This document shows positions 3,025-28,407 of a stretch of 39,402 nt of DNA, piece by piece. Below the pieces are notes generated by a model, which did no database searches, was not told the DNA's origin, and saw only the letters and a program-made list of their open reading frames with translations. The DNA is taken from the NCBI GenBank assembly GCA_964544485.1, contig CAZJBH010000002.1, positions 1 to 39,402 on the forward strand, read 5' to 3'. The position numbers and the translations under genes were made by a program. This DNA is from an uncultured Candidatus Saccharibacteria bacterium. Lineage in GTDB: Bacteria > Patescibacteriota > Minisyncoccia > Portnoybacterales > UBA2143. Numbering within the stretch: the stretch's first letter is position 1; the number at the start of each line of letters is the position of its first letter.

Positions 3025-3107
3025 ATTTAATAAACCAGCTTTTGCGTTAAGAAATAAGTGAGCTAAATATTTGCTTGCTTTGTTCGTTCGCAATAGTTTG
3101 ATTGAAT

Positions 3108-4997
3108 ATGTCTAAAATTATAGGAATTGATTTAGGAACTTCTAATTCCGCGGCCGCGGTTTTAGAAGGAAATAAATCAACAATTGTTCCTTCAGCTGAA
3201 GGAACTGTAGTTGGCGGAGGCAAAGCCTTTCCTTCTTATGTGGCTTTTGACAAAGAAGGTAATTTATTAGTTGGCGAGCCAGCCCGTCGGCAAGCAGTTA
3301 CTAATTCAGAAAATACAGTTTCTGCTTTTAAGCGGAAAATGGGAACTAAGGAAAAAATTAGTCTGGGAGGCAAAGAATATACTCCTCAGCAATTATCTGC
3401 TTTTGTGCTGCAGAAAATTAAAAAGGACGCGGAATCTTATCTTGGAGAGACAGTTGATAAAGCAGTAGTTACTGTTCCGGCGTATTTTAATGATTCTCAG
3501 CGTCAAGCAACCAAGGATGCTGGTTCAATTGCCGGATTAGAAGTAATTCGAATTATTAATGAGCCGACTGCTGCTTCTTTAGCTTATGGAATTGATAAAT
3601 CAGGCCAAGAGGAAAAGATTTTGGTTTTTGATTTAGGCGGCGGAACTTTAGATGTAACAATTATGGATTTTGGCGAAGGAGTTTTTGAAGTTAGATCAAC
3701 TTCAGGAGATACCGAAGTTGGCGGAACTGATATGGATGAAGTTTTAGCTGATTATATTGCCCAGGAATTTCAAAAAGAGCAGGGGATAGATGTAAAACAA
3801 GATAAAACTGCTTGGCAAAGACTAAAAGAAGCTGCGGAAAAAGCTAAGATTGAGCTTTCTTCAACTATGGAAACAGAAATTAATCTTCCTTATATCACTG
3901 CAGATCAAAACGGTCCTAAGCATTTAAGCATGAAGATTAATCGAGCTAAAGTAGAAGAATTGGTTCAGCCGATTGTTCAAAAATGCAAAGCTCCTTTAGA
4001 GCAGGCAATTAAAGATGCTAAACTTTCAGTTGATGACATTACCAAAATTATTATGGTTGGCGGTCCTACTCGAATGCCGATTGTCCAAAAATTTGTAGAA
4101 GACGCGGTTGGCAAAAAAATTGAACGCGGAATTGATCCAATGGAATGCGTAGCTATTGGCGCAGCTATTCAGGGAAGTATTTTAAGCGGAGATACTAAAG
4201 ATGTGCTTTTGCTTGATGTAACTCCGTTAACTTTAGGAATTGAGACTTTAGGCGGAGTTATGACTCCATTAATTGAACGAAATACTACAATTCCAACTTC
4301 TAAATCTCAAGTATTTTCTACTGCGGCTGATAATCAGCCATCAGTAGAGATTCATGTACTTCAAGGAGAAAGGCCAATGGCAGCGGATAATCGAAGTTTA
4401 GGTCGGTTTATGCTGGATGGAATTCCTCCAGCTCCGCGCGGAGTTCCTCAGATTGAAGTTTCTTTTGACATTGACGCGAATGGAATTCTTAATGTGAGCG
4501 CTAAGGATAAAGGAACCGGCAAGGAACAGAAAATTACGATTACTGATTCTTCAGCTTTATCTAAAGAAGATATTGAAAAAATGAAGCAGGAAGCAGAACA
4601 ATATTCTGATGAAGATAAAAAGAAAAAAGAAATGATTGAAGTTAAAAACAATGCTGATACTTTAATTTTTTCTACAGAAAAAGCGTTAAAAGAAGCAGGT
4701 GATAAATTAAAAGAAGAAGATAAAAAAGAAGTTGAAGAAAAATTAGAGGCTTTGAAAAAATCTAAAGATGGAGATGATTTAGAAGTAATTAAGAAAGCGA
4801 ATGAAGAATTATCTCAATCAGTTCAGAAAATCGGCCAGCAATTATATCAAACAGTTCAAGAGCAGCAAAAAGAACAGGAAGAGCCAGAAATTAAAGGAAA
4901 GCAACAAGATAATCAGCAGCAAAAACAAGAAGAAACTAAACAAGCAGAGACAGAAGAAGTTAAGGGAGAAGAGGAGAAACAAGAAGAGGGAAAATAG
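3108..4997 (+). CDS. dnaK: molecular chaperone DnaK (Hsp70)
   Basis: [19 protein letters not shown] and other Hsp70 signatures run the full length, followed by a charged Q/E/K-rich tail. The track start is a TTG at 3102, and an ATG lies at 3108. Confidence 0.95.
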
Positions 4998-5010
4998 AGT
5001 AAGCGAAAAG

Positions 5011-5226
5011 AGGACGTTCTTTAGAAGGCGTGTCCTTCTGAAAGAAGGACGGCGCCTTATAAGGAATGTCCTCTAAAGAGAGACTATCTATCGAGGACAC
5101 TCTTTAAAAGATACGTCCTTTTAACAAAGAACATATCTTTTAAGGAGCGTCCTCTAATTTACCTGCAATGACAATCCTTTTTTAACTTTCTACAAAGAAC
5201 ATACCTTTTAAGGAATGTCCTCTAAA
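5011..5226. repeat. intergenic repeat array: three AGGAC-N16/17-GTCCT inverted repeats plus 34-bp and 18-bp direct repeats
   Basis: Inverted repeats lie at 5011-5036, 5046-5072 and 5094-5119. A 34-bp direct repeat lies at 5124-5157 and 5192-5225 with 3 mismatches. An identical 18-mer TAAGGAATGTCCTCTAAA lies at 5060-5077 and 5209-5226. Confidence 0.8.
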
Positions 5227-5240
5227 TCAACGAAGAATAG

Positions 5241-5275
5241 AAAAAAGGCGGCCTTTATTAGGTCGCCTTTTGGTT
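5241..5275. terminator. bidirectional rho-independent terminator between dnaK(+) and the 5280-6083(-) gene
   Basis: The stem AAGGCGGCC (5245-5253) / GGTCGCCTT (5261-5269) is 9 bp with one G-T pair and a 7-nt loop. It is flanked by an A-run on the left and a T-rich run on the right. Confidence 0.65.
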
Positions 5276-5279
5276 TTGT

Positions 5280-6083
5280 TTAATCAAGACATTCGGTTCC
5301 GACTACGGTACAGGGTGTTCCTGGCGGTACCGGGGTGACTTTGTCCTGGTAGTATACCATTCCTAGCTCCGGGTTTCCGTCACAGTTCAAAAGATAAAGA
5401 GCGTTTTTGCTTGGTTCCGGAATCCAGAGATGGCATTCGGTTGGTCCTCCGGTACACCACTGATCTGTAATCCAGTGCCGGTCCAGGACATAGCTGCTCT
5501 TCTTTCCCGGATTAATAAAGTCTGCCGGGTTGTCAAAAATGAATTTGACCCATCCGTCATGGACCACGCCAATGGCCAGTACATTGTTGCAGTAATTAAT
5601 CTTGTTTTTGAGATGACTGTGAAGGTAGAGCACGGTTCCATCTGGAATCGGAGATTCATCTCCACAATCTACACACCACATTCCCCAGACGCGAATTTCA
5701 AGTAAAGCCTGGGACCCGCCTTTCATGAGTCCGTAATGGACTTCATTTCCGATAATGAAATGATCCGTGGCTGTGTTTTGGCTTTCCTCGCCAGAGTCAT
5801 TATACGACCGGATCAAGACATAATAGGCGGCGCCTTTGTTTAGTTCAATACTGTATCCGGAAACATCCCCTAGATCAAAATGCGCCCACCAATTTTGAGA
5901 AGGGTAGGGAGCATAATAGATCCTGTATCCGGTGGCGCCCGGGACCAGGTTCCAATTGAGCGTCAAATAGTTTCCATTGACCTCCATGTTTACATCCGGA
6001 GCTGCTAGCTCCGCGCAGGCTAAACCTGCGGATCCAATTGCCAAGACTGCTGTTAAAATTAATGTTAAAAATACCTTTTTCAT
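5280..6083 (-). CDS. secreted hypothetical protein: signal peptide, FN3-like N-terminal domain and an 8-Cys C-terminal domain
   Basis: 267 aa. The signal peptide is MKKVFLTLILTAVLAIGSAGLACA|E, with an AXA-type cleavage site. LTLNWNLVPGATGYRIYY resembles an FN3 strand pattern. The mature C-terminal half has 8 Cys. An AGGAGA RBS precedes the ATG. GC is far above the local background. Confidence 0.75.
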   Translation of the reverse strand: MKKVFLTLILTAVLAIGSAGLACAELAAPDVNMEVNGNYLTLNWNLVPGATGYRIYYAPYPSQNWWAHFDLGDVSGYSIELNKGAAYYVLIRSYNDSGEESQNTATDHFIIGNEVHYGLMKGGSQALLEIRVWGMWCVDCGDESPIPDGTVLYLHSHLKNKINYCNNVLAIGVVHDGWVKFIFDNPADFINPGKKSSYVLDRHWITDQWCTGGPTECHLWIPEPSKNALYLLNCDGNPELGMVYYQDKVTPVPPGTPCTVVGTECLD

Positions 6084-6151
6084 CTTTCTCTCCTTTCATT
6101 CTTTTGGGTTTTGATTTAAAAGATCTACCTCCTTGTCTTGATTATGTCGTT

Positions 6152-6231
6152 ATCTTATCTTAAAATAGATTTTTTGTCAAGGGCTTGATTAATTTTAGCC
6201 TCTTGACAAAAATTCAATTATTTGCTAGATT
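6152..6231. promoter_or_regulatory. divergent promoter pair embedded in a ~15-bp inverted repeat (candidate operator)
   Basis: The arms are TTTTTGTCAAGGGCT (6171-6185) and AGCCTCTTGACAAAAA (6197-6212). The plus-strand promoter is TTGACA 6203-6208, N17, TAGATT 6226-6231. The minus-strand promoter is TTGACA (complement of 6175-6180), N17, TAAGAT (complement of 6152-6157). Confidence 0.45.
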
Positions 6232-6274
6232 ATATTTACCTGAGATACAGGTTTTTTTATTTGGAGGTAAAATT

Positions 6275-6982
6275 ATGGATACAAAACAAATTCTTAATAT
6301 AATTTGGCAAAGGAAATGGCTCGTTTTTTGGACAACTGTCTTAGGGCTTTTTTTAGCTTTTGATATTATGGTTTTGCAAACCCCGATGTATAAAGCTAGT
6401 TCCAGAGTTTTAGTGGTTCAAAAACAAGTAGCTGGACAAGATATTTACGCGGTTTCTAAATCAGCTCAGTATTTATCGCAGGTTTTAAAAGAAGCGGTTT
6501 ATTCTGATGATTTTTTCAATAAAACCATTCAAGCTTCTGATGGAGAAGTAGAGCCGCAAAATTTTCCAACTAATCTTAAAGACCGTAGGGAAGAATGGGA
6601 AGATACAGTAAAGATTACTGTTGCGCGCGATTTAGGTTTAATGGAAATTGATGTTTATTACCCGCGTCAGGAAAAAGCTAGACAAATAAGTTTAGCAGTT
6701 ACTAAGATTTTAGCTGAAGAACATCAAGCTTATCATGGAGCCGGTAAAAATGTAGAAGTCAGAGTATTAGATTATTCTGCGGTAACTGACGCGCCAACTA
6801 CTTTGCGCTTATGGATAACAACTTTGTTAGGCTTATTATTTGGCTTGCTAGCAGGATCTTTATGGGCAGTTAGAAAAAATATTAAAGATTCTATTCAACA
6901 AAATCAATTACAAAGCCAAGAAGAAAATTTAACTAATCAGGAAGTTGATTATCAAGAACCAATTGATGGATTACCTTTCTAA
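6275..6982 (+). CDS. Wzz-like polysaccharide chain-length determinant protein (no kinase domain)
   Basis: It has an N-terminal TM (WLVFWTTVLGLFLAF) followed by PMYKASSRVLVV, and a C-terminal TM (LWITTLLGLLFGLLAGSLWAV). This is the PCP/Wzz topology. A GGAGGT RBS at 6263-6268 favours the ATG at 6275 over the track start at 6185. Confidence 0.6.
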   Translation: MDTKQILNIIWQRKWLVFWTTVLGLFLAFDIMVLQTPMYKASSRVLVVQKQVAGQDIYAVSKSAQYLSQVLKEAVYSDDFFNKTIQASDGEVEPQNFPTNLKDRREEWEDTVKITVARDLGLMEIDVYYPRQEKARQISLAVTKILAEEHQAYHGAGKNVEVRVLDYSAVTDAPTTLRLWITTLLGLLFGLLAGSLWAVRKNIKDSIQQNQLQSQEENLTNQEVDYQEPIDGLPF

Positions 6983-7005
6983 ATTAGATTTTTCTTGGCA
7001 AATTT

Positions 7006-7032
7006 AAAAGACAGCTTTTTAAGCTGTCTTTT
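7006..7032. terminator. bidirectional terminator between convergent genes
   Basis: A perfect stem AGACAGCT (7009-7016) / AGCTGTCT (7022-7029) with a 5-nt loop, flanked by AAA and TTT. Confidence 0.6.
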
Positions 7033-7052
7033 AATATTCTAGTCTAGATTTA

Positions 7053-8351
7053 TTATTCTTGATTTATTTTCAGCCAGCTGGCAATTAGAATCCAAAGATT
7101 CCATTGAAGAGCAGTAGTTCTAAGAATATTATCAAATGAGCTGGCTGCGATTAGGCTGATAAAAATCGCTAAAATGCCAATTCCCATAGTTTTGGAAATT
7201 TTAGAATTTAAGCAGGTTTTTAAAAGCTTTTGCAGAGTTCCCAGAAAGAGCCATAAATAAATGCTTAAGCCAATTAAGCCGGTTTCAGTCATGATTTTTA
7301 AATAATCATTATGAGCATCTAAGCTGCCAAAACTATATCCGCGTAAATACTCTACTAAATAATTGAATACTCCGATGCCATGGCCAAGCCAAGGTTGCCA
7401 AAAAGCGATTGGCAGAACATCTTTCCAAAGTCGAAATCTCCAGATAATTGAACCATATGGGTCTAAAGAAATTAAATTCCAAAGCCGTTCTTGAAAAACC
7501 TCAGAAAGCAAATAAGCGGCAAAAAAACAGAGAACCCCGATTAAAAGCATTTTCTTATATCTAATTAAGCCAATGATTAAAATAAAGATGAGAAAAGCTG
7601 CATAAGCAGAGCGGGTATAGGTGAAAAATAAAAGGCCTCCGGCGACAAAAATAAAGAAAAGCATTTGAAGCTTGCTCCAGCCTATTTTGTCTTCTGATTC
7701 AATTTTTTTAAAAGCAAGTAAAAAACTGATTGCTAAACCAAGAATGAAGAAAGAATAAAAAGCAAATAGATTAGGATGGGCAAAAGTTCCAAAAATCCTT
7801 TTGAATCCTCCAAATTGGTCTGGCATGCCTAATCCGAAAACTTGCTGGATAAAAGCGAATAAGGCCGGGATAATATAGCTTAATAGAATAAAAGATATGA
7901 TTAAATACCAATCCTTTTTATTGGTTGTTAATTTATAAGCCATAAAATAAATTAGAAAGATGCTGGATATTCTGATAAATTCTTGCAAGCTAATCAAACT
8001 GTTATATGAATAAAAAATGCTAATGAAAATAACTGACAAAAAAGCAATAATTGGCCAAAAAAGAGGAGCTTTGAAAAGATTTTTAAGATTAGCTAAAAAG
8101 AAAATAGCTCCAATAATAAAAACCAGGCTGCCAAGAATTGTATTTACATTTAAATAAGGAAGAGTTGAATGCAATTTAAATTCAAATTGGCTAAAAAAAT
8201 CTAAACATGGCCTGATTAAGATTAATCCGAGCAAGAAATAAAAAAGAGGCCTTTGTTGCGCTTTTTTTAATTTTTGCTTGGCTTGGTTTAAATCATCCTG
8301 GATATTATAGAAGCCAGCCTCTTGATTTGATTTGCTATTGACTTTTTCCAT
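7053..8351 (-). CDS. O-antigen ligase / polymerase-like (Wzy_C family) polytopic membrane protein
   Basis: 432 aa with about 10-12 TM segments. It contains TRSAY...FL and a periplasmic-loop-type HNDYLKIMTETGLIGL block, typical of the O-antigen ligase family. Confidence 0.65.
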   Translation of the reverse strand: MEKVNSKSNQEAGFYNIQDDLNQAKQKLKKAQQRPLFYFLLGLILIRPCLDFFSQFEFKLHSTLPYLNVNTILGSLVFIIGAIFFLANLKNLFKAPLFWPIIAFLSVIFISIFYSYNSLISLQEFIRISSIFLIYFMAYKLTTNKKDWYLIISFILLSYIIPALFAFIQQVFGLGMPDQFGGFKRIFGTFAHPNLFAFYSFFILGLAISFLLAFKKIESEDKIGWSKLQMLFFIFVAGGLLFFTYTRSAYAAFLIFILIIGLIRYKKMLLIGVLCFFAAYLLSEVFQERLWNLISLDPYGSIIWRFRLWKDVLPIAFWQPWLGHGIGVFNYLVEYLRGYSFGSLDAHNDYLKIMTETGLIGLSIYLWLFLGTLQKLLKTCLNSKISKTMGIGILAIFISLIAASSFDNILRTTALQWNLWILIASWLKINQE

Positions 8352-8406
8352 AAAATTTGGCAGAATAAGAACAAAGGAGGAAATCCTTTTTTTAATTTAT
8401 TCTACA

Positions 8407-9474
8407 ATGAAATCAAATAAAAATTCAATTAAAGATATTGTTTTAGCTCTGACCTATCAATGCAACAGTTGTTGCAAGTTTTGTAATATTTGGAAAAGCA
8501 AGAAAACTTTTTCTTTATTGCCAGAGGATTATAAAAATATACCACAAAGTGTAAAAAACATCAATCTTTCCGGCGGAGAGCCTTTCTTAAGAAAGGATTT
8601 GCCGCAAATTATTAAATCTATTAGCCGCCAAGTTCCTAAGGCTAAAATTATTATTTCTACGAATGGTTTTAAGCCAAGTTTAATTAAAAAAAACATGCAG
8701 CAAATCATTAAATTCAAGCGGGATATCGGAGTCGCGGTTTCAATAGACGGATTTGGCAAAGTTCACGAAGATTTAAGGGGAGTTAAAGGTGGATATAGCT
8801 TGGCTTTGGAAAGTATTCGTTTATTAAAGGAATTAGGCATTCAAGATATTAAAATTGCTTTTACCCTAGGGAATTATAATATAGATCAATTAAAAAGAGT
8901 TTATCGATTAAGCCAAGAATTAAAAGTTGAATTTAGCTTGGCGATTTATCATAACTCAGCTCATTATTTTTCCACTAGCGCGAATAAAGTTTCTAAGATA
9001 AAAACAATTAAAAAAGAATTGCTTTGGCTAATTGAGCAAGAACTTAAATCTTATTCTTTAAAGCGCTGGCTAAGAGCGTATTTTACCTGGGGTGTAATTT
9101 GGTATTTAGAAAACAAGGAAAGAATTTTGCCTGATTATTCCGGTAAAAACTCTTTATTTATTGATTCTTACGGAAATATTTATCCTTCTGATGTTTGGAG
9201 CTTGCGATTAGGCAAGTTGCAAGAAATAAAGGATTGGAAAGAATTTCAGAAACAAGCGGGAAAACAAGTTGATATAGAAAAAGCTCCGGTTAATTGGATG
9301 GTTTGTACTGCTCGGCAGGCGATTAAAAAACATTGGTTTCAGGTTATTTCTTGGATAATAGTTAATAAGATGAGTTTAATTTTAACCAGACAAACAGTTT
9401 TAGAAGCTGATTTTAGCCGATTAAATTTATTTACTCAAGCAGGTAAAATTATTAAAAAAATTAGCATATTCTAA
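8407..9474 (+). CDS. radical SAM enzyme (single CX3CX2C cluster, Cys-less SPASM/twitch-like C-terminus)
   Basis: CNSCCKFC gives Cys at positions 1, 5 and 8, i.e. CX3CX2C, followed by the SAM-binding NLSGGEPFL. The track start at 8332 would overlap the divergent gene, so the first ATG at 8407 is preferred. Confidence 0.75.
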   Translation: MKSNKNSIKDIVLALTYQCNSCCKFCNIWKSKKTFSLLPEDYKNIPQSVKNINLSGGEPFLRKDLPQIIKSISRQVPKAKIIISTNGFKPSLIKKNMQQIIKFKRDIGVAVSIDGFGKVHEDLRGVKGGYSLALESIRLLKELGIQDIKIAFTLGNYNIDQLKRVYRLSQELKVEFSLAIYHNSAHYFSTSANKVSKIKTIKKELLWLIEQELKSYSLKRWLRAYFTWGVIWYLENKERILPDYSGKNSLFIDSYGNIYPSDVWSLRLGKLQEIKDWKEFQKQAGKQVDIEKAPVNWMVCTARQAIKKHWFQVISWIIVNKMSLILTRQTVLEADFSRLNLFTQAGKIIKKISIF

Positions 9475-9475
9475 T

Positions 9476-10768
9476 ATGAAAATTTTACAGATTAACAAAT
9501 TTTTTTATTTAAAGGGCGGATCTGAGAGATATTTCTTTGATCTAGCTGATTTATTGTCTCAAAATAAAGAACAGGTTTTTGTTTTTAGTATGAAGAGTTC
9601 TGAGAATTTTGATTATCCTGGACAGGAAAATTTTGTTGAAGAAGTTGATCTGTCAAAAAATCAAGGATGGATAAAAGATATTCAAAAAGCTGTAAAAATT
9701 TTTTGGAACAAGGAAGCGGCTAAAAAACTAGAAAAAATAATTATTCAAGAAAAACCGGATCTAGCGCATCTGCATAATTTTTTCGGACAGCTTTCTCCTT
9801 CAATTATCTATACTTTAAAAAAATATCAGATTCCAATTGTAATAACTTTGCATGATTATAAATGGATGTGTCCGAATTATACTTTTTTTAGCCAAGGACA
9901 AGTTTGTTATGATTGCTTAAATAATCGGAATTACAGGAATTGCTTAACTAAAAAATGCATTAAGAATTCTTATCTTAAAAGCGGGCTTGGCTATTTAGAG
10001 GCTAAATGGCAAAAAGACATATTGAAATTATCAGATAAGATTGATTTTTTTATTGCGCCAAGCAGATTTATTAAAAACAAACTTAAAGAATCAGGAATTG
10101 AATCTTCTAAAATTAAGCAGATCCCAAACTTTATTAATCGCGATTGGATTGATTTTAAAGATGATACTAAAACAATTCGTCCGTATTTTTTGTATTTCGG
10201 GCGCTTGAGCCAAGAAAAAGGAATTCAATTATTAATCAATGCTTTTTTAAAAATAGCTGAGGATTATCCTAATTGGGATTTAAAAATTGCCGGAGAAGGT
10301 CCGGAATATTTTAAAATTGCTCAATTAGCTGAAGAGAACGCGCAAATTCAAATGCTGGGCCAGATTAAAGGAAAAAATTTAAAATCTTTAATTAATCAAT
10401 CCTATGCTGTAGTTGTTCCTTCTTTATGGCCTGAAAATTTTCCTTATACTGTTTTAGAGAGTTTTGCCTTGGCTAAGCCGGTAATTGCTGCTAAAACAGG
10501 CGGTCTGATTGAAATGCTAAATCAGGAAAAGAACGGACTTTTATTTAAGCGCGCTGATTCAGAAGATTTAAAAGAAAAATTAATTTGGGCGATTAAGCAT
10601 TTTAAGAAAATGCAAGATAAGGGCAAAGCTGCTCAAATGGATTTATTGAAAAAATATCAGCCAAGCAGCCATTATGAGAAAATAAGCAGAGTTTATCAGC
10701 AGGCTAAAACAATTAATGCTTGGTCTTGTTGCGAAATAAAAGAGCCGGTTTCCAATAATTTAAATTAA
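9476..10768 (+). CDS. glycosyltransferase family 4 (GT-B, retaining)
   Basis: The C-terminal domain has the ENFPYTVLESFALAKPVIA...GGLIE (E-X7-E type) signature. The N-terminal domain carries a 5-Cys insert, CPNYTFFSQGQVCYDCLNNRNYRNCLTKKC. Confidence 0.8.
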   Translation: MKILQINKFFYLKGGSERYFFDLADLLSQNKEQVFVFSMKSSENFDYPGQENFVEEVDLSKNQGWIKDIQKAVKIFWNKEAAKKLEKIIIQEKPDLAHLHNFFGQLSPSIIYTLKKYQIPIVITLHDYKWMCPNYTFFSQGQVCYDCLNNRNYRNCLTKKCIKNSYLKSGLGYLEAKWQKDILKLSDKIDFFIAPSRFIKNKLKESGIESSKIKQIPNFINRDWIDFKDDTKTIRPYFLYFGRLSQEKGIQLLINAFLKIAEDYPNWDLKIAGEGPEYFKIAQLAEENAQIQMLGQIKGKNLKSLINQSYAVVVPSLWPENFPYTVLESFALAKPVIAAKTGGLIEMLNQEKNGLLFKRADSEDLKEKLIWAIKHFKKMQDKGKAAQMDLLKKYQPSSHYEKISRVYQQAKTINAWSCCEIKEPVSNNLN

Positions 10769-10770
10769 TT

Positions 10771-12108
10771 ATGCAAGAGAAAAAGATTATCAATCTATTA
10801 GTTATTCTAAGCATTATCCTTTCTTTAATAGGTGTATTTTTTGTTTTTTCTAATGACTGGGCTAAAATTGATTATTTTTTAGCTGGTTTTAATGGCTCTG
10901 ATCAAGGAACAAGCAAATTTTCTTTTTTAAAATATTTACCTGAATTATTCGGCTTAAACCAGGAAAAAACATATTTATTGCTTTTCCAAAATAATTTGGA
11001 ATTAAGGCCATCAGGCGGATATTTGGGAAGTTTTGCAATTATTAAGTTTAAAAATGCCAAGATAACTCATTTAGGGATTCATGATACAAATATTTTTGAC
11101 GGATTTGGCCAAGAACAAACACAGCCGCCTCAGCCATTGCAAGATCATTTAGGAATAGAGAATTGGCAGATGAGAGATGGAAACTGGTCTCCGGATTATT
11201 TAATTTCAGCCAAGCAAGTAAAAGATTTTTATCATTTGCAGGGAGGAGAAGAAACTTTTGACGGAATTATTGCGGTTAATGCTACGGTTTTATCGCGTCT
11301 TTTAGAAATTATTGGCCCGGTTTATTTAACTAATCTTGATAAAGAATTTACTTCAGAGAATGTATTATATGAGCTTGAATACGAAGTAGAAAAAAATTAT
11401 TTTAATCACGGGATTGAACAAGGAGAAAGAAAATCCGCTTTAAAAATCTTTATCAAAAAAGTATTAGCTGAATTGATTGACAAAAAGTATTTAACTGATC
11501 AAAATTTAAGAAAACTTGCTTTGGAAGAGTTAGACAAGAAAAATATTTTGCTTTATTTTAAAAATGATAAATTGCAAGATTTTGTTGAAAAGAAAGATTG
11601 GGGCGGAAGAGTTGAAAATAATTATCCGGGTAATTATTTAATGCTTGTAGAAGCTAATTTAATCGGTAAAAAAAGCAATGCTTTTATTCAGAGAAAAGTT
11701 GATTATGCAATTGATTATTCTAACTCAAAACCAAAAGTTAATTTAGAAATTAATTTTACTCATAGCAATCCTAATAAAGATTGGTTTAATCATGATTACC
11801 GTTGTTATTTAAGGGTTTATCTGCCTAAGGGATCTTGGCTGGTTAAGTTTTCAGGATTAAATCAAGAACCGAATTTTAGCCAAGGATTAGGTAAAACAAT
11901 TATCGGCGGATATTTAGTTATTCCAGCCGGTGAATCTAAAAAAATCAGTTTTGAATATCTTTTGCCGGAAGGAATAGGAAAAGAATTATTGATTCAAAAA
12001 CAGCCAGGGATAGATAGTATTGAATATGATTTTCAGATTAAATATTCAAATAAACAAGATAATTCTTTTAATAAGCTTATTTGGCGGGATGAGTTAATCC
12101 AATTATGA
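10771..12108 (+). CDS. DUF4012 domain protein (N-terminal TM anchor)
   Basis: LLFQNNLELRPSGGYLGSFAII matches the hallmark NNxExRPxGG block that I associate with DUF4012. It has a single N-terminal TM and is translationally coupled to the flanking GT4 genes. Confidence 0.6.
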   Translation: MQEKKIINLLVILSIILSLIGVFFVFSNDWAKIDYFLAGFNGSDQGTSKFSFLKYLPELFGLNQEKTYLLLFQNNLELRPSGGYLGSFAIIKFKNAKITHLGIHDTNIFDGFGQEQTQPPQPLQDHLGIENWQMRDGNWSPDYLISAKQVKDFYHLQGGEETFDGIIAVNATVLSRLLEIIGPVYLTNLDKEFTSENVLYELEYEVEKNYFNHGIEQGERKSALKIFIKKVLAELIDKKYLTDQNLRKLALEELDKKNILLYFKNDKLQDFVEKKDWGGRVENNYPGNYLMLVEANLIGKKSNAFIQRKVDYAIDYSNSKPKVNLEINFTHSNPNKDWFNHDYRCYLRVYLPKGSWLVKFSGLNQEPNFSQGLGKTIIGGYLVIPAGESKKISFEYLLPEGIGKELLIQKQPGIDSIEYDFQIKYSNKQDNSFNKLIWRDELIQL

Positions 12109-13205
12109 AAATAGCCATGGTCGGACAAAAAGGAATTCCCACCTTATATGGAGGAATTGAGCGTCATGTTGAAGAGCTGGCTTTGCGTATGGCTAAAAGA
12201 GCTGATTTAAAAGTTTTTGTTTATGCGCGCAATTATTACACTCCTAAAAGGATTAAGAAGTATAAAAAAGTTAATTTGATTCATCTTCCTTCTTTGCCAA
12301 CTAAGCATTTGGATGCGATTAGCCATACTTTTTTAGCTTGTTTGCACAGCGCTTTTAGATTAAAGCCAGATGTGATTCATATTCATGGAATTGGCCCAGC
12401 GCTTTTAACTTGGCTGCCAAAAATATTAATTCCTTCAGCTAAAGTAATTTTTACTTATCATTGCCAAGATTATTATCATCAAAAATGGGGTTTTTTAGCT
12501 AGATTTTCTTTATATTTAGGAGAAAAGATTGGATGCTATTGGGCTGATGAAATTATTGCTGTATCCAAAGATTTACAGGATTATATTCAGGAAAAATATC
12601 AGCGTCAGGCTCAATTTATTCCGCACGGAGTTAATCAGCAAGAAGTTATCCAGCCTAGAATAATTCAGCAATGGGGATTAGAAAAAGAAAATTATATTTT
12701 AGTAGTCAGCCGATTAATCAGGCATAAGGGGATTCATTATTTAATTAAAGCTTATCAGGAGTTGAATCCAAATAAAAAATTAGTTATTGTTGGCCCTTGT
12801 TTTCATACTCATGATTATGAAAAAGAAATAAAAAGAATGGTTGATAATAATCCAAATATTTTATTTTTAGGCGCGCAATCAGGCAGAGCTTTGCAAGAAC
12901 TTTTTGCAAATGCTTATCTTTTTGTTAATCCTTCAGAACAAGAAGGAATGCCTTTATCAGTTTTGGAAGCAGGAGGATTTGGTTTGCCTCTGCTTTTATC
13001 TGATATTAACGCGCACTCTAAAATGTTCGCTAATCTGCCTTATTTTTTTAAAAATAAGAATGTTTTTGATTTAAAAAATCAATTGGCTTATATTCTTAAT
13101 CAGAGAAATAAATCTCTAAGCCAAGGGAAAGAAATCAAGGAATATGCTCGAAAAATATATGATTGGGAAAACGTTGTGGAAAAAACTATTTTAGCTTATG
13201 CTTAA
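12105..13205 (+). CDS. glycosyltransferase family 4
   Basis: MKIAMVGQKGIPTLYGGIERHVEEL at the N-terminus and EQEGMPLSVLEAGGFGLPLL (E-X7-E) at the C-terminus. It has an ATGA overlap with the upstream gene. Confidence 0.8.
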   Translation: MKIAMVGQKGIPTLYGGIERHVEELALRMAKRADLKVFVYARNYYTPKRIKKYKKVNLIHLPSLPTKHLDAISHTFLACLHSAFRLKPDVIHIHGIGPALLTWLPKILIPSAKVIFTYHCQDYYHQKWGFLARFSLYLGEKIGCYWADEIIAVSKDLQDYIQEKYQRQAQFIPHGVNQQEVIQPRIIQQWGLEKENYILVVSRLIRHKGIHYLIKAYQELNPNKKLVIVGPCFHTHDYEKEIKRMVDNNPNILFLGAQSGRALQELFANAYLFVNPSEQEGMPLSVLEAGGFGLPLLLSDINAHSKMFANLPYFFKNKNVFDLKNQLAYILNQRNKSLSQGKEIKEYARKIYDWENVVEKTILAYA

Positions 13206-13243
13206 TTGCTGGTATAATAAAGTTAAATAATATTTAACTTTTT

Positions 13244-14085: not shown

Positions 14086-15183
14086 ATGAAGGATTATTAT
14101 GAAATTTTAGGCGTTGATAAAAACGCTAATGAATCGGAAATAAAAAAAGCATATAGAAAATTAGCTTTAAAATATCATCCAGATAAAGCTCCTCAAGACA
14201 AAAAACAAGAATACGAAAAAAAATTCAAAGAAGTAAGCGAAGCTTATCGGGTTCTTTCAGATAAAGAAAAAAGAGCCCAATATGATCAATATGGCCAAAC
14301 TTTTGAAAATCAAGGATTTGGCCAACAGGGTTTTTCTCAGCAGGATTTTGGATCTTTTTATGATGCTTTTGGTGGTAAAGATAGTTTTGAAGATTTGGGT
14401 TTTGATAGGATTTTTGAACAAATTTTTGGCTTTAGCAGAAACAGGGGAAGATCTAGGACAGTTGGCCGTCCAGGAGAGGATATTGCAATTGATACAGAGA
14501 TAAGTTTAGAACAGGCTTATACTGGGGTAGAAAAAGAAATTGAATTAAGAAAATTAAAAGTTTGTCAGAAATGCCAGGGCAAAGGAGGAGAAAATCTAAA
14601 AACTTGTCCTAAATGCCAAGGTTCTGGCTATGAACAGATTAGGTCCGGAAATATTCTTCAAATGTTTATTCAGCAGCGTCCTTGTTCTGAGTGCCAAGGC
14701 CGAGGTCAAATTCCAGAGAAGCCATGTCCTGAATGCCGCGGACAAGGGAGAATCAGAGAATTGGATAAAATTAAAGTAAAAATTCCAGCCGGTATAGCTG
14801 ATGGCCAAACTTTGCAAATGTCTCAATCCGGAGAAGCCGGCCAATACGGAGGTCCGGCCGGAGATCTGTATGTAAATATTCATGTTAAACCGCATTCAGA
14901 TTTTCAAAGGCAAGGAGATAATTTAATTTATAATTTGAAAATTGGTTTTGCTCAGGCAGCTTTAGGTGATAAAATAGAGATACCAATTATTAATAACAGC
15001 AAAATAGGTTTAAAAATTCCAGCCGGAACTCAGCCAGGAGATGTTTTAAAAGTTAAGGATAAAGGCATGCCTAGCTTATACGGACGCAGTAAAGGCGATT
15101 TATTAGTTAAAATTCAAGTTGAAATTCCTAAAAAACTTTCCCGCCAGCAAAAGAAATTAATTCAAGAATTAAAAAATGTTTAA
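14086..15183 (+). CDS. dnaJ: co-chaperone DnaJ (type I)
   Basis: It has a J-domain with HPD (YHPDKAP) and a G/F-rich linker. Four CxxCxGxG zinc-finger repeats follow ([32 protein letters not shown]). Confidence 0.95.
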
Positions 15184-15780: not shown

Positions 15781-15851
15781 GCCCCGTTAGCTCAGTGGTA
15801 GAGCAGCTGGCTTTTAACCAGTTGATAGGGGTTCGATTCCCTTACGGGGTA
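15781..15851 (+). tRNA. tRNA-Lys (anticodon UUU), CCA not encoded
   Basis: Cloverleaf folded by hand. The acceptor is GCCCCGT/ACGGGGT (G1-U72) and the D-arm is GCTC-AGTGGTA-GAGC. The anticodon arm is GCTGG-CTTTTAA-CCAGT, so the anticodon is TTT. The T-arm is AGGGG-TTCGATT-CCCTT and the discriminator is A. Confidence 0.9.
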
Positions 15852-15857
15852 CTGAGT

Positions 15858-15931: not shown

Positions 15932-16339
15932 ATGAAAAGAGTTTCTAAGAAAAAATTAAAAGAAATTGCTGAAAGATATAATCTTGCCGATATATATGTT
16001 TTTGGATCCCAGGTATCTGGTTTTTCTCATCCGGGAAGTGATTTTGATATTGGAGTGAGATTCATTAAAAAGTTGCCGTCAATAAAAAAAAGAACCCGAG
16101 TTTACGGGGATCTTTATGTTGAATTAAGTTCTTGTTTTAAAAAAGAAAATCTTGATTTGGTTTTTATTCAAGAGGCTCCTTTGCATATTCGATACAAAAT
16201 TTTAACTCAAGGAGAATTAATTTATACCCGAGATCAAATTGAATCTTGCAATTATTTGGAAAAAACAGTTTTAACTTATAATGACTATAAATATTTTATT
16301 GATGAATTTCATGAAGGCATTTTGGAATTTAATCGTTAA
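15932..16339 (+). CDS. mntA: MNT-type nucleotidyltransferase (antitoxin of a HEPN/MNT type VII TA pair)
   Basis: The minimal NTase motif is present: FGSQVSGFSHPGSDFDIGV (GS-X9-DxD). The size is 135 aa. It lies directly upstream of the HEPN gene with a 3-nt spacer. Confidence 0.8.
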   Translation: MKRVSKKKLKEIAERYNLADIYVFGSQVSGFSHPGSDFDIGVRFIKKLPSIKKRTRVYGDLYVELSSCFKKENLDLVFIQEAPLHIRYKILTQGELIYTRDQIESCNYLEKTVLTYNDYKYFIDEFHEGILEFNR

Positions 16340-16342
16340 TTA

Positions 16343-16792
16343 ATGGCTATGACTAGAAAATTAAATTTTGATAAAGAAAAAATTATTCAAAGAATAAATG
16401 ATATTGATCAGGCTGTTTTAGAACTAAAAAGATTTCAAGAAATAGATTTCAGAGAATTTCAAGAAAATAAAGATAATTATGCTTTAGCTTGCTATTATCT
16501 TAGAATTGCCATTGAAGGAGTTCTTAGTATTAGTACTCATTTATTGTCTCGATTGCCTTCTAATGGAAAGAAAAAAGATTATAGCCAGTCTATTTTGTCT
16601 TTAGGAGAGTATGGGGTTTTGCCTTTAGAATTTGCTAAAAGAATTAAAGGAATGGCTGGGCTAAGAAATCGTTTAGTTCATTTATATTGGGAGGTTGATC
16701 CCAAAGAAATATTTTCTATTATTAATCAAGATATTAAAGATTTTAATAAATTTATTCAATATATCCAAAAATATCTTAAAGCTATTAAATAA
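16343..16792 (+). CDS. hepT: HEPN (DUF86) RNase toxin
   Basis: The R-X4-H HEPN catalytic motif is present as RNRLVHLY near the C-terminal third. The size is 149 aa, and it is paired with the MNT gene. Confidence 0.8.
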   Translation: MAMTRKLNFDKEKIIQRINDIDQAVLELKRFQEIDFREFQENKDNYALACYYLRIAIEGVLSISTHLLSRLPSNGKKKDYSQSILSLGEYGVLPLEFAKRIKGMAGLRNRLVHLYWEVDPKEIFSIINQDIKDFNKFIQYIQKYLKAIK

Positions 16793-26325: not shown

Positions 26326-27258
26326 ATGAGAAAAAGCAATCAGCCATTAATTTCTTATTTAACTAGTTTTTTAGATTGGTTAGATATTGAAAAAGGTTTA
26401 TCTAATAAATCACAGGAAAACTATTCCCGCTTTTTAAATAAGTTTGTCAATTGGTTAAAAGAAAAAAAAATATCAGATTTAAAACCTCATCAGCTCTCCC
26501 CTAGTCATATTTGGGATTATCGAGTTTATCTTGCGCGTCAATCAAAAAAGCCATTAAAAAAATCAACTCAAAATTATTATTTAATTGCTTTGCGTTCTTT
26601 TTTGAATTATTTTGCTAATCAAGATATACTTTGTTTACCGGCTGAGAAAATAAAATTAGCTAAGACTAAAGGTGAAAAAAAAGTTCATTTTTTAACTTAT
26701 GAACAAATTGAAAAACTATTATCTATTCCGGATACAAATAAAAAAAATGGCTTAAGAGATAGAGCCATTTTAGAAATTTTATTTTCAACCGGTTTAAGAA
26801 TAGCTGAGTTAGTAGCTCTTAATCGAGATCAAATAAATATTAAATCAAATTCTAAATATTTTGAATTAGGTATTATTGGTAAAGGAAGTCATCCAAGAAC
26901 TGTATATTTTTCAGAGCGGGCTATCTATTGGCTTAACAAGTATCTAGAAACTAGAGCTGATTTAGAAAAACCTCTTTTTATTAATTACCAAGGCAGAAAA
27001 AATAAGCCAAGCCGTTTAACTGATCGTTCAATTGAAAGAAATATCAAAAGATACGCTCTAATAGCCGGTTTGCCGTCTAATACTACTCCTCATACGCTTC
27101 GTCATTCATTTGCTACTGATTTATTAAATAAAGGAGTTGATTTAAGATTAATCCAGGAATTTTTAGGGCATCAGAATATAATTACTACTCAAATTTATGC
27201 TCATGTAACTAATAAAAAATTGCGTGAAGTTCATCAAAAATTTCATGGGAAAAAATAA
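26326..27258 (+). CDS. tyrosine site-specific recombinase, XerC/XerD-like
   Basis: It has an N-terminal SAM-like core-binding domain. The catalytic residues are in GLRIAEL (R), HTLRHSFAT (H-x-x-R) and LGHQNIITTQIYAHV (H...Y). Confidence 0.88.
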   Translation: MRKSNQPLISYLTSFLDWLDIEKGLSNKSQENYSRFLNKFVNWLKEKKISDLKPHQLSPSHIWDYRVYLARQSKKPLKKSTQNYYLIALRSFLNYFANQDILCLPAEKIKLAKTKGEKKVHFLTYEQIEKLLSIPDTNKKNGLRDRAILEILFSTGLRIAELVALNRDQINIKSNSKYFELGIIGKGSHPRTVYFSERAIYWLNKYLETRADLEKPLFINYQGRKNKPSRLTDRSIERNIKRYALIAGLPSNTTPHTLRHSFATDLLNKGVDLRLIQEFLGHQNIITTQIYAHVTNKKLREVHQKFHGKK

Positions 27259-27261
27259 ATT

Positions 27262-28407
27262 ATGCGTATTTCTTATTCCGGATTAGAATCTTTTTCTAAT
27301 TGTCCGGCAAAATATAAATATCAATATATTGATCGAATTAAAGCTGTTAAATCAAAAGAAGCTGTTTTTGGCACCTTAATTCATGAATGCCTTAAGCTTT
27401 TTCATGAGCCAAGCCAGCCAGTCCCCTTATCTGAAGATGAATTATTAAAAATTTATACTCAAAAATGGAATTCTTCAGTTTATCAAGACAAACAAGAAGA
27501 AGCTTTTGCTTTTCATCAAGGAATTGAGATTCTTAAAAATTACTATGTTCAAAATCAAAGCAAGAATTTTAATATAGTTAATTTAGAATCTCCTTTTGAA
27601 GCTTTAATTAAAGATAAAGATAAAAATGAATTTCATCAAATTACCGGACGAATAGATAGAATTGATAAATTAGAAGATGGATCTTTTGAAGTGATTGATT
27701 ATAAAACAAGCAAAAAAATGCCTGCCCAAAGAGAAATTGACAATAATTTTCAATTATCAGTTTATTATCTTGGTTTAACTAATCGTTGGCCTTCTTTGAA
27801 AGAAAAGAATAAGCCGATTAAATTATCTTTATATTATCTTAAACATGGAGAAAAATTATCTACTTTTCAAAATCAGGAAAAAATAAAACAGAATCAGGAT
27901 AGAATTTTAGAATTAATTGATCAAATTAAACAAAGTAATTTTGACCCAATTTTAAATCCCCTTTGCGATTGGTGCTCTTATCAGAAATATTGTCCTTTAT
28001 TTAGGCATAAATTTATTAAGCAAGATTCCCCTTCTTTGGATGAGAAGAAAATCCAGGAAATTATTCAGGAATATTTTGAGCTTAAAGAGAATCAATCGCA
28101 AGAGAATCAAAGATTAGCGCAATTAAAAGATCAGATAAATAAATATTGCGATGAGAATAATTTAGACAGAATTTTTGGCGATCAAGGATATATCGCCAGA
28201 AGCATTCAAAAAAGATATGATTATGATGCTGATAAATTAAAGCAAATTTTAGAACCCTTAGGAAAATGGAGTCAAATTTTAAGTTTAGATACAAAAAAAT
28301 TCAAAGCGCTTTATGATTCTCTTCCCTATCAAGTCAGAAAAAAAATTCAAAAAGCTAAAACTAAAGAAAAAGAATTTAAAACGATTTCAATTAGAAAAAA
28401 TAAATAA
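27262..28407 (+). CDS. PD-(D/E)XK nuclease with Cas4/AddB-type 4-Cys Fe-S module plus a ~130-aa C-terminal extension
   Basis: One Cys is near the N-terminus (SNCPAKY) and CDWCSYQKYC (CX2CX5C) lies downstream. The nuclease core is GRIDRID...FEVIDYKT (D...E-x-K) with QLSVYY (QxxxY). It starts 3 nt after the xer stop. Confidence 0.75.
   Translation: MRISYSGLESFSNCPAKYKYQYIDRIKAVKSKEAVFGTLIHECLKLFHEPSQPVPLSEDELLKIYTQKWNSSVYQDKQEEAFAFHQGIEILKNYYVQNQSKNFNIVNLESPFEALIKDKDKNEFHQITGRIDRIDKLEDGSFEVIDYKTSKKMPAQREIDNNFQLSVYYLGLTNRWPSLKEKNKPIKLSLYYLKHGEKLSTFQNQEKIKQNQDRILELIDQIKQSNFDPILNPLCDWCSYQKYCPLFRHKFIKQDSPSLDEKKIQEIIQEYFELKENQSQENQRLAQLKDQINKYCDENNLDRIFGDQGYIARSIQKRYDYDADKLKQILEPLGKWSQILSLDTKKFKALYDSLPYQVRKKIQKAKTKEKEFKTISIRKNK

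Follow-up and report, generated by a model that had tools for sequence, protein, structure and literature searches.

Fibronectin type III (FN3) domains act as spacers in many bacterial surface proteins, and clusters of the O-antigen and capsule type, which likewise concern the cell surface, are usually AT-richer than the core genome. Both serve as points of comparison for the gene described here, which occupies positions 5280-6083 on the minus strand of a 39,402-nucleotide stretch of DNA (the window, meaning the whole stretch that was analysed) from contig CAZJBH010000002.1 of an uncultured Candidatus Saccharibacteria bacterium, placed by GTDB in the Portnoybacterales of the Patescibacteriota. 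The gene lies between dnaK and a block of cell-envelope glycan genes, and its 267-residue product is predicted to be exported, with an N-terminal FN3 domain followed by a cysteine-rich C-terminal domain. A first-pass annotation, made by a model from the sequence alone, had proposed a recently acquired, compositionally foreign cassette. The composition is as deviant as it claimed, yet the gene is probably an old, lineage-specific accessory surface-protein gene of one Patescibacteria clade, with persistent GC-rich codons, and not a recent foreign arrival.

The N-terminal domain belongs to a well-known superfamily, being homologous to FN3 surface proteins (PF00041) of the 'GYxLYYAPYP...GAAYY' repeat subtype, among them giant multi-repeat proteins and the proteins P0147, P0152 and P0072. 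P0147 and P0152 share with the window protein an N-terminal layout of signal peptide followed by FN3. The window protein has a single FN3 domain, whereas the giant proteins have up to 37 matched FN3 stretches, and this domain is fused to an orphan cysteine-rich domain, whereas the known FN3 relatives carry MopE-like, Lcl_C or RHS modules. The literature search found no paper on FN3 proteins of Patescibacteria. Like variable surface loci such as O-antigen and capsule clusters and islets, the gene stands beside wzz and Wzy_C, in a variable slot between housekeeping genes, with a composition unlike that of the core. Unlike O-antigen and capsule clusters, it is GC-richer, is a single gene, adjoins glycan genes of normal composition and bears no mobility signatures.

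Two further comparisons come from related bacteria. The protein MAF20148.1 (P0154), from a metagenome-assembled genome (MAG) of a marine Parcubacteria, shares the C-terminal domain, the slot between dnaK and wzz, and a GC content at third codon positions (GC3) above that of its neighbours, but lacks FN3, has a lipoprotein-like or twin-arginine-translocation-like N-terminus (KREFL...AAAAC) and lies by a wzz gene of different orientation. Strain-variable, cysteine-rich extracellular proteins of the candidate phyla radiation (CPR) have been described for Peribacteria and proposed, on grounds as indirect as those here, to act in attachment (PMC4736985). They resemble the window protein in CPR host, signal peptide, high cysteine content, strain variability and cell-envelope glycan neighbourhood; they are described as large (PMC4736985), against 267 residues here, and the likeness drawn here is one of description. 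Their Peribacteria genomes have a high GC content (58.5%), without any reported anomaly of composition (PMC4736985). Genes of this kind, which code for a small, exported and accessory protein of the cell surface and lie in a variable slot by glycan genes, are familiar. The C-terminal domain represents an orphan family, of five sequences, that has no previous description.

Composition and age of the gene

At 47.3% GC, the open reading frame (ORF) contrasts with a window mean of 32.3%, and relative to the 804-nucleotide (nt) windows that do not overlap it (mean 31.9%, standard deviation 2.7%, maximum 39.7%) its z-score is 5.6. The deviation is larger still at third codon positions, where GC3 is 0.496 (z = 7.0), as against a mean of 0.234 (standard deviation 0.037, range 0.155-0.305) for the 32 other ORFs of at least 150 residues, and it extends to second positions (GC2), at 0.40 versus 0.19-0.38 in the other ORFs. 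The strand-symmetric tetranucleotide distance has its window-wide peak at 5301-6100 (z = 5.9). The rise in GC ends where the ORF ends, with 100-nt bins of 43-54% at 5301-6000 and of 23-30% in the promoter region at 6101-6300, and the glycan island around the gene is of ordinary composition. The first-pass annotation had reached its claim of a compositional outlier from hand counts of GC in 60-nt lines, of which eight of eight are exact, and the windowed statistics bear the claim out.

As a fallback it had suggested that composition is driven by amino-acid content. The unusual content would be that of an exported protein rich in Gly, Pro, Cys and Trp. The GC2 value points in this direction, and recoding the protein with the codon usage of the window gives 38.2% GC, about 6 points above the window mean, and a GC3 of 0.26. 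Amino-acid content therefore accounts for about 6 of the 15 excess GC points (~40%) and codon choice for the remainder, so that the fallback stands for part of the GC excess and fails for GC3 and codon choice. Val is encoded by GTC at a frequency of 0.52, versus 0.08 in window usage; Thr by ACC at 0.50 versus 0.15 and by ACT at 0 versus 0.60; Asn by AAC at 0.58 versus 0.14; Tyr by TAC at 0.50 versus 0.12; and Pro by CCG at 0.56 versus 0.23, with the choice of Asp codons likewise inverted. In addition, the ortholog at the related locus L004 is a 57%-identical protein encoded at a GC3 of 0.24. As a sole cause, amino-acid content is refuted, and a composition that is nothing but its by-product is a most improbable account.

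The whole protein and two C-domain profiles served as queries in searches for relatives among 5.8 billion clustered proteins, and HMMER was used on 1.84 billion representatives; local tblastn was also run on loci fetched with DnaK. The HMMER scan used a full-length profile, and the best 150 of its 12,648 matches, mostly FN3 repeats, were listed; C-domain-only relatives scoring below ~123 bits would be hidden in it. With the HMMER part limited to the matches listed, the family comprises five distinct proteins. These are the window protein, found with its exact sequence on one contig only, the full-length homologs P0002, P0003 and P0006 (60%, 58% and 57% identity, the last from the HMMER scan), and the C-domain-only homolog P0154 (33% identity, E 8e-63 to the profile). 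When the word-indexed database was queried with two profiles of the C-domain alone, P0154 was the only new member to emerge. Pattern A1 brought up no relative in GTDB species genomes, JGI metagenome contigs or IMG/VR, and pattern A4, run on the JGI contigs, brought up two known members only. All members come from related Patescibacteria, a clade in which the closest relatives by DnaK bear the labels Parcubacteria or Ca. Portnoybacteria.

By Pfam, the gene order in the window is CorA (minus strand), GrpE, Hsp20 and DnaK, then the gene, Wzz, Wzy_C, radical SAM, GT4, DUF4012 and GT4, and then orf268, DnaJ and orf183. Because dnaK, orf268, dnaJ and orf183 are directly contiguous in six related genomes (L010, L011, L013, L015, L021 and L022), the cell-envelope glycan block is an island that splits an ancestral dnaK-orf268-dnaJ operon, and the gene sits at its dnaK-proximal edge, at the junction that the first-pass annotation had identified. 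It had also asked whether siblings have dnaJ or wzz directly after dnaK. The six genomes have dnaJ, with orf268 between, and three others (L007, L009 and L014) have wzz, with the slot empty; at L018 the slot holds an unrelated 176-residue lipoprotein gene. Family members are found at L001, in the order Wzy(+), wzz(+), gene(+), dnaK(-), and at L002, in both of which the gene is convergent with dnaK; at L003-L005, where it is divergent from wzz, as in the window, on contigs that stop short of dnaK; and at L008, the marine Parcubacteria locus, in the order dnaK(+), P0154(-), wzz(-), Wzy(-), radical SAM(+).

An abrupt change of composition in a metagenome-type contig, and an exact protein sequence confined to that contig, might be taken as signs that a fragment of another organism was mis-joined into it. 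The homologs are, however, joined to the same flanking genes in three independent assemblies (ENA, Logan and JGI), with the terminator and the -10 region conserved, and because these assemblies reproduce both junctions, a chimera is so very unlikely as to be nearly negligible. The window and L002 align at 87-96% over the 3' end of dnaK (4528-4927), at 88% over the terminator and the last 40 nt of the gene, at 46-75% in the gene body, and at 77% over the signal peptide and ribosome-binding site.

The age of the gene can be judged against that of its flanks. DnaK of the window is 80% identical to that of L001 or L008 and 89.5% identical to that of L002 over the available C-terminal part; among the lineages compared, Wzz is 50-63% identical and the product of the gene 56-64%. 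Distances between C-terminal domains meet the four-point condition and group the window with L002 and L001 with L004, the same grouping as that given by dnaK and wzz similarities. The nonsynonymous divergence (dN) of the gene is 0.29-0.36 and its synonymous divergence (dS) is at least 2 or, through saturation, not computable; the gene is under purifying selection, with a dN/dS of ~0.15. Synonymous memory was taken as the degree to which residues shared by two copies also share their codon, beyond what the codon usage of each gene would predict. For the gene it is ~0 between the two sub-clades, the corresponding values for dnaK and wzz being 0.09-0.11 and ~0. Between the window and L002 it is 0.23 for the gene and 0.38 for dnaK, a difference that is not significant (estimated standard errors ~0.07 and ~0.08). 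From the congruent grouping and the loss of synonymous memory between sub-clades, it follows that the gene has travelled with its flanks and that its presence predates the complete turnover of synonymous sites.

These results bear directly on the proposal of a recent acquisition from an unrelated, GC-richer donor whose sequence has not yet ameliorated. The strong deviation in GC, GC3, codons and tetranucleotides, confined to the ORF, is what such a transfer would leave, and the gene is oriented opposite to its neighbours, at the edge of an island. Orthologs nonetheless occupy the same locus in lineages whose DnaK is ~80% identical and whose synonymous sites are saturated: P0002, P0003, P0006 and P0154 lie in the same dnaK/wzz slot, mostly with raised GC3, and the distribution (present at L001, L002, L003-L005 and L008, absent at L007, L009 and L014) is patchy but old. 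The searches found no homolog of the full protein or of its C-terminal domain outside the clade, with the HMMER scan limited to the matches listed, and the promoter, ribosome-binding site and terminator look native and are conserved. The window scan revealed no mobility gene, tRNA or flanking direct repeat bounding the gene; the only tRNA reported in the window is at 15781, and the only recombinase (26326-27258) lies 20 kb away. A recent arrival is highly improbable on this evidence, and the first-pass terms "recently acquired" and "foreign" are not upheld.

GC-rich codons in the dnaK/wzz slot

Raised GC3 recurs in the relatives. The gene has a GC3 of 0.50 in the window, where its neighbours have 0.22-0.30; of 0.46 at L002 (neighbour 0.22); of 0.34 at L001 (neighbours 0.12-0.17); and of 0.445 at L008 (neighbours 0.30-0.335). 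It therefore exceeds its neighbours in four of five lineages, that is, in the window and three of four relatives. Because the relic of one ancient transfer should have decayed, this offset appears to have been maintained over time. Translational selection for C-ending codons is ruled out as its cause by dnaK, in which the frequency of C at third positions (C3) is 0.07, and an effect of export class is ruled out by the exported core proteins of the window, with GC3 of 0.16-0.22 (Peptidase_S11 0.155, S41 0.205, LytR_cpsA_psr 0.22). Part of the C3 enrichment, but not all of it, can be put down to the gene's lying on the minus strand, the region being G-skewed; Wzy, on the same strand, has a C3 of 0.19.

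Other genes in or beside the slot show a similar tendency. Unrelated small secreted or lipoprotein genes, without a Pfam match, are found there at L018 (7922-8452, minus strand), L009 (8807-9682), L014 (4765-5685) and L007 (8905-9927). Their GC3 is 0.51 versus 0.35-0.39 in neighbours at L018, 0.37 versus 0.19-0.27 at L009 and 0.33 versus 0.13-0.18 at L014, and only slightly above neighbours at L007, which hints that the accessory surface-gene pool of the clade is GC-richer than the core genomes.

A rival account is that surface-protein alleles are exchanged again and again within the clade, among Patescibacteria of unlike genomic GC, with the dnaK/wzz slot acting as a recombination hot-spot like serotype or O-antigen loci, conserved flanks serving as anchors, and the GC-rich copies in the window and L002 derived from GC-richer relatives. 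Consistent with this, slot occupancy varies among empty, target family, C-domain-only form and unrelated lipoprotein; the accessory genes near wzz at L018, L009 and L014 exceed neighbour GC3 while the exported core genes of the window do not; the pairwise divergences of the gene form a star-like pattern; when the window is compared with L002, nucleotide identity falls from ~90% in the flanks to 46-75% inside the gene; and related genomes range from 29 to 40% GC. Against it, no GC-richer donor copy was found in the databases searched, gene distances group as those of dnaK and wzz do, the gene and dnaK have kept a similar degree of synonymous memory between the window and L002, and no mosaic breakpoint is evident by domain. 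Allele exchange as the full account is possible but on the whole doubtful. Under the favoured account, that of an old accessory gene with persistently GC-rich codons, the ancestor shared by these lineages would already have carried the gene in the slot, before their synonymous sites turned over. Because it was in place before that turnover, its GC-rich codons would be no un-ameliorated trace of recent transfer but a persistent property of the gene, kept by selection, by local bias or by allele exchange within the clade.

Domains of the protein and signals around the gene

The window protein begins with MKK and a 19-residue hydrophobic core (residues 4-22, mean Kyte-Doolittle hydropathy 2.28), followed by ACA/E, which fits the signal peptide with an AXA site described in the first-pass annotation. 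The n- and h-regions are kept in all orthologs, but the AXA motif is not (SYAC/E in P0002, GATC/D in P0003); Cys23 is invariant in four of four orthologs. The residues before it are G-L-A, S-Y-A, G-A-T or K-A-T across the four orthologs, none of which makes a canonical lipobox, [LVI][ASTVI][GAS]C. The Pfam model LPAM_1 matches the window protein weakly (E 2.4), its GLAC being non-canonical as a lipobox, and P0154 has A-A-A-C.

The next module, in which the motif LTLNWNLVPGATGYRIYY begins at residue 40, scores 15.9 bits (E 0.016, residues 31-104) against Pfam fn3, under the 25-bit gathering score, and the orthologs P0002, P0003 and P0006 have no Pfam match at E<=0.1. It is, however, 36-38% identical to two repeats of P0147 (BLASTP, E 2e-15), a protein that itself falls slightly under the gathering score at 24.2 bits, while P0152 (33.2 bits) and P0072 (167.5 bits) pass it, and the best of the 12,648 proteins matched by the full-length family profile are the giant FN3 proteins. 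The AlphaFold2 (AF2) model places strands at residues 31-36, 39-44, 52-59, 67-72, 76-80, 86-94 and 108-111, with a predicted local distance difference test (pLDDT) score of 56-83 over residues 30-100, a moderate confidence obtained from an alignment of three sequences only. In Foldseek searches this part matches single FN3 domains (for example 4u3h, 7t87_C and 3teu) with template-modelling scores of 0.59-0.68 and root-mean-square deviations of 2.1-3.4. Because it is homologous to bona fide fn3 proteins and is predicted to form a seven-strand beta-sandwich, the N-terminal module is an FN3 domain in spite of its sub-threshold Pfam score, as the first-pass annotation had supposed from its motif.

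The remaining ~160 residues have no match of note in Pfam, NCBIfam, PHROGs or PDB sequences. The AF2 model of this domain is beta-rich at low confidence (pLDDT 49.5) and finds nothing in the PDB by Foldseek at E<=0.001; the full-length model has a pLDDT of 48.4, and its FN3 part alone is usable. Cysteines occur at positions 23, 137, 140, 165, 210, 217, 234, 258 and 265, and the count of eight in the C-terminal half is as originally reported. Five are invariant across all five family members, and C137 and C217 are lost jointly in P0006, which suggests that these two may pair with each other. No catalytic motif is conserved among family members, and the first-pass annotation had recognised none; the sole His invariant in all five is H155, in YLHS.

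Several candidate relatives of the C-terminal domain were rejected. A 40-residue stretch matches the three identical designed repeats of MITSUBA-1 at 6-7 bits each, for a summed E of 4e-4 that weakens to 0.011 with a more diverse profile; a beta-trefoil lectin of the MytiLec/MITSUBA type finds neither a three-fold repeat in the domain nor support from Foldseek. Other matches to PDB sequences, those to FAM3A/ILEI (E 0.45) and Wnt-3 (E 0.13), are weak and not significant. PHROGs and NCBIfam returned FN3-type noise only (tail fibre J, E 0.006) and a spurious AimP match to the signal peptide.

The coordinates of these domains are collected in Table 1 with those of the putative expression signals. 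Relatives have a comparable ribosome-binding site (AAAGGAGG at L002, AAGGAG at L001 and L004), and 21 of 21 nt around the -10 element of the gene are identical between the window and L002. The arms of the palindrome hold the two divergent TTGACA -35 boxes, one for the gene and one for wzz. Just beyond the stop codon, the terminator hairpin has a folding energy of -13.7 kcal/mol (z -4.3) on the strand of the gene, with UUUUUU after it; L001, L002 and L004 have a hairpin and U-run in the corresponding position, their stems differing by compensating changes, and L008 aligns across this stretch, folding having covered the other three. The separate promoter and terminator of the first-pass annotation are thus both recovered, and these predicted signals show the gene as a transcription unit of its own, separate from its neighbours. 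In the ORF list, wzz begins with a TTG (6185) that lies within the promoter palindrome. The likely true start is the ATG at 6275, whose product (MDTKQ...) lines up with all ortholog N-termini.

Table 1. Coordinates of the gene, its domains, its putative signals and the surrounding genes in the window
Feature	Position	Strand	Basis
CDS of the 267-residue protein, predicted exported	5280-6083	-	ORF list; intact in four other lineages; stop codon 5280-5282
Signal-peptide codons, residues 1-23 (MKK, hydrophobic core, Cys23 at or near cleavage site)	6015-6083	-	Read from sequence
FN3-type beta-sandwich domain, residues 28-110	5754-6002	-	Homology and predicted fold
Orphan C-terminal domain, ~157 residues, 8 Cys, predicted beta-rich	5283-5753	-	AF2, conservation
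Shine-Dalgarno AAAGGAG, 6 nt upstream of ATG	6090-6096	-	Read from sequence
Sigma-70-like promoter site of the gene, TTGACA-17-TAAGAT	6152-6180	-	Consensus scan, 10/12 matches
Promoter-like site in front of wzz, TTGACA-17-TAGATT	6203-6231	+	Consensus scan
Palindrome, arms 6164-6181/6202-6219	6164-6219		Inverted repeat, 18-nt arms, 89% complementary
Intrinsic terminator, bidirectional, common to the gene (-) and dnaK (+)	5243-5271		Hairpin fold
Hairpin repeats, ~2.5 imperfect copies of 62-65 nt, long hairpin (GAGGAC...GTCCTC)	5009-5222	+	Between dnaK stop and terminator
Glycan island, ~8.2 kb (gene, wzz, Wzy_C, radical SAM, GT4, DUF4012, GT4)	4998-13243		Pfam, synteny
DnaK	3102-4997	+	
Wzz	6275-6982	+	
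Wzy_C	7053-8351	-	
dnaJ	14086-15183		

The hairpin repeats, which lie on one side of the gene only, give three matches where none is expected, and this is their only place in the window. A stretch of 291 nt around them (4995-5285) has a folding energy of -115 kcal/mol (z -10.8) when taken as RNA from the dnaK strand. The corresponding spacers of L001 and L002 lack the block, and that of L002 carries a different GC-rich palindrome at that place. No known RNA family was assigned, Rfam giving sub-threshold matches of a miRNA-precursor-like kind only, that is, generic hairpins. The block could be an element like a repetitive extragenic palindrome or a miniature inverted-repeat transposable element, or a stabiliser in the 3' untranslated region of dnaK. 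On the other side of the gene, wzz runs in the same direction as dnaK in the window, L007, L009, L014 and L018 and is inverted in L001 (234-884) and L008 (8627-9265), while its neighbours on either side do not change direction; a search for an invertible wzz switch found no inverted repeats flanking it in the window.

Two regions farther along the window deserve mention. After tRNA-Lys(UUU) at 15781-15852, two small ORFs (15932-16339 and 16343-16792) lie in a very AT-rich stretch (25-27% GC) and, from their motifs, look like a toxin-antitoxin pair of the MNT-HEPN kind, with a nucleotidyltransferase (GS...DFD) and a HEPN/DUF86-like protein (R-x4-H). The tyrosine recombinase at 26326-27258 (Phage_integrase, XerC/D type) and a PD-(D/E)XK/Cas4-like nuclease at 27262-28407 lie in the lowest-GC part of the window, and beside them, near 29 kb, gene orientation turns from plus to minus and cumulative GC skew peaks. 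The stretch from 26326 to ~29000 may mark a replication terminus served by a Xer/dif system or else represent a mobile element.

A possible role at the cell surface

In the favoured account, transcription would start from the sigma-70-like promoter, divergent from that of wzz, and stop at the conserved hairpin terminator common to dnaK. The product would be exported to the cell surface by a Sec-type signal peptide that ends at the invariant cysteine. Its single FN3 beta-sandwich would probably serve as a stalk or spacer for a beta-rich head of ~160 residues, stabilised by three to four disulfides and probably ligand-binding. Because the gene stands beside Wzz and Wzy_C, and because cysteine-rich extracellular CPR proteins offer a precedent, a surface role is plausible by analogy, such as the binding of a partner cell or of the cell's own glycan layer. 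The role in host interaction or adhesion put forward in the first-pass annotation is likewise plausible.

Several points weigh against this account. The raised GC3 is not universal, since at L004 the gene (0.24) is at the level of its neighbour (0.25), and were synonymous sites neutral, a GC3 of 0.5 should have decayed. The congruence of trees rests on a short internal branch and five sequences only, and so small a family makes both the tree inference and the structure prediction weak. Protein divergence of the gene is nearly equal for all pairs (36-44%), as against 10-32% for the C-terminal region of DnaK, and such evenness is compatible with accelerated evolution or an exchange of alleles as well. 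Four of the related loci have the slot empty or otherwise filled, so gain and loss are frequent. The protein may be either freed by signal peptidase I cleavage or tethered to lipid through Cys23, and with no recognisable fold in the C-terminal domain the "binding head" is conjecture.

A bolder reading, which we hold to be unlikely, is that, in Patescibacteria lineages whose synonymous sites are otherwise saturated, some process actively keeps the codons of this one accessory surface gene GC-rich. The means might be selection at the nucleotide or translation level on an exported, disulfide-bonded protein, or use of the dnaK-edge slot as a point where surface or host-specificity alleles from a GC-richer pool are exchanged between lineages. 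The orphan 160-residue cysteine domain might, in that reading, be a new binding fold for the attachment of episymbiont-like cells.

For the study of gene transfer, the locus means that a GC3 z-score of 7 is not sufficient to call a recent event, as the seemingly foreign gene predates the split of lineages with saturated synonymous sites. The persistence of GC-rich codon usage in reduced, AT-rich genomes poses a real if modest puzzle of molecular evolution, the only surprising element here; with a tiny family of five sequences and no sign of a new mechanism, general impact is limited. If the C-terminal domain is a binding module, the protein would be a small and tractable candidate, of 267 residues with one FN3 domain and a head, for the contact of ultra-small CPR/Patescibacteria cells with their partners or with their own glycan layer, an area with almost no experimental handles.

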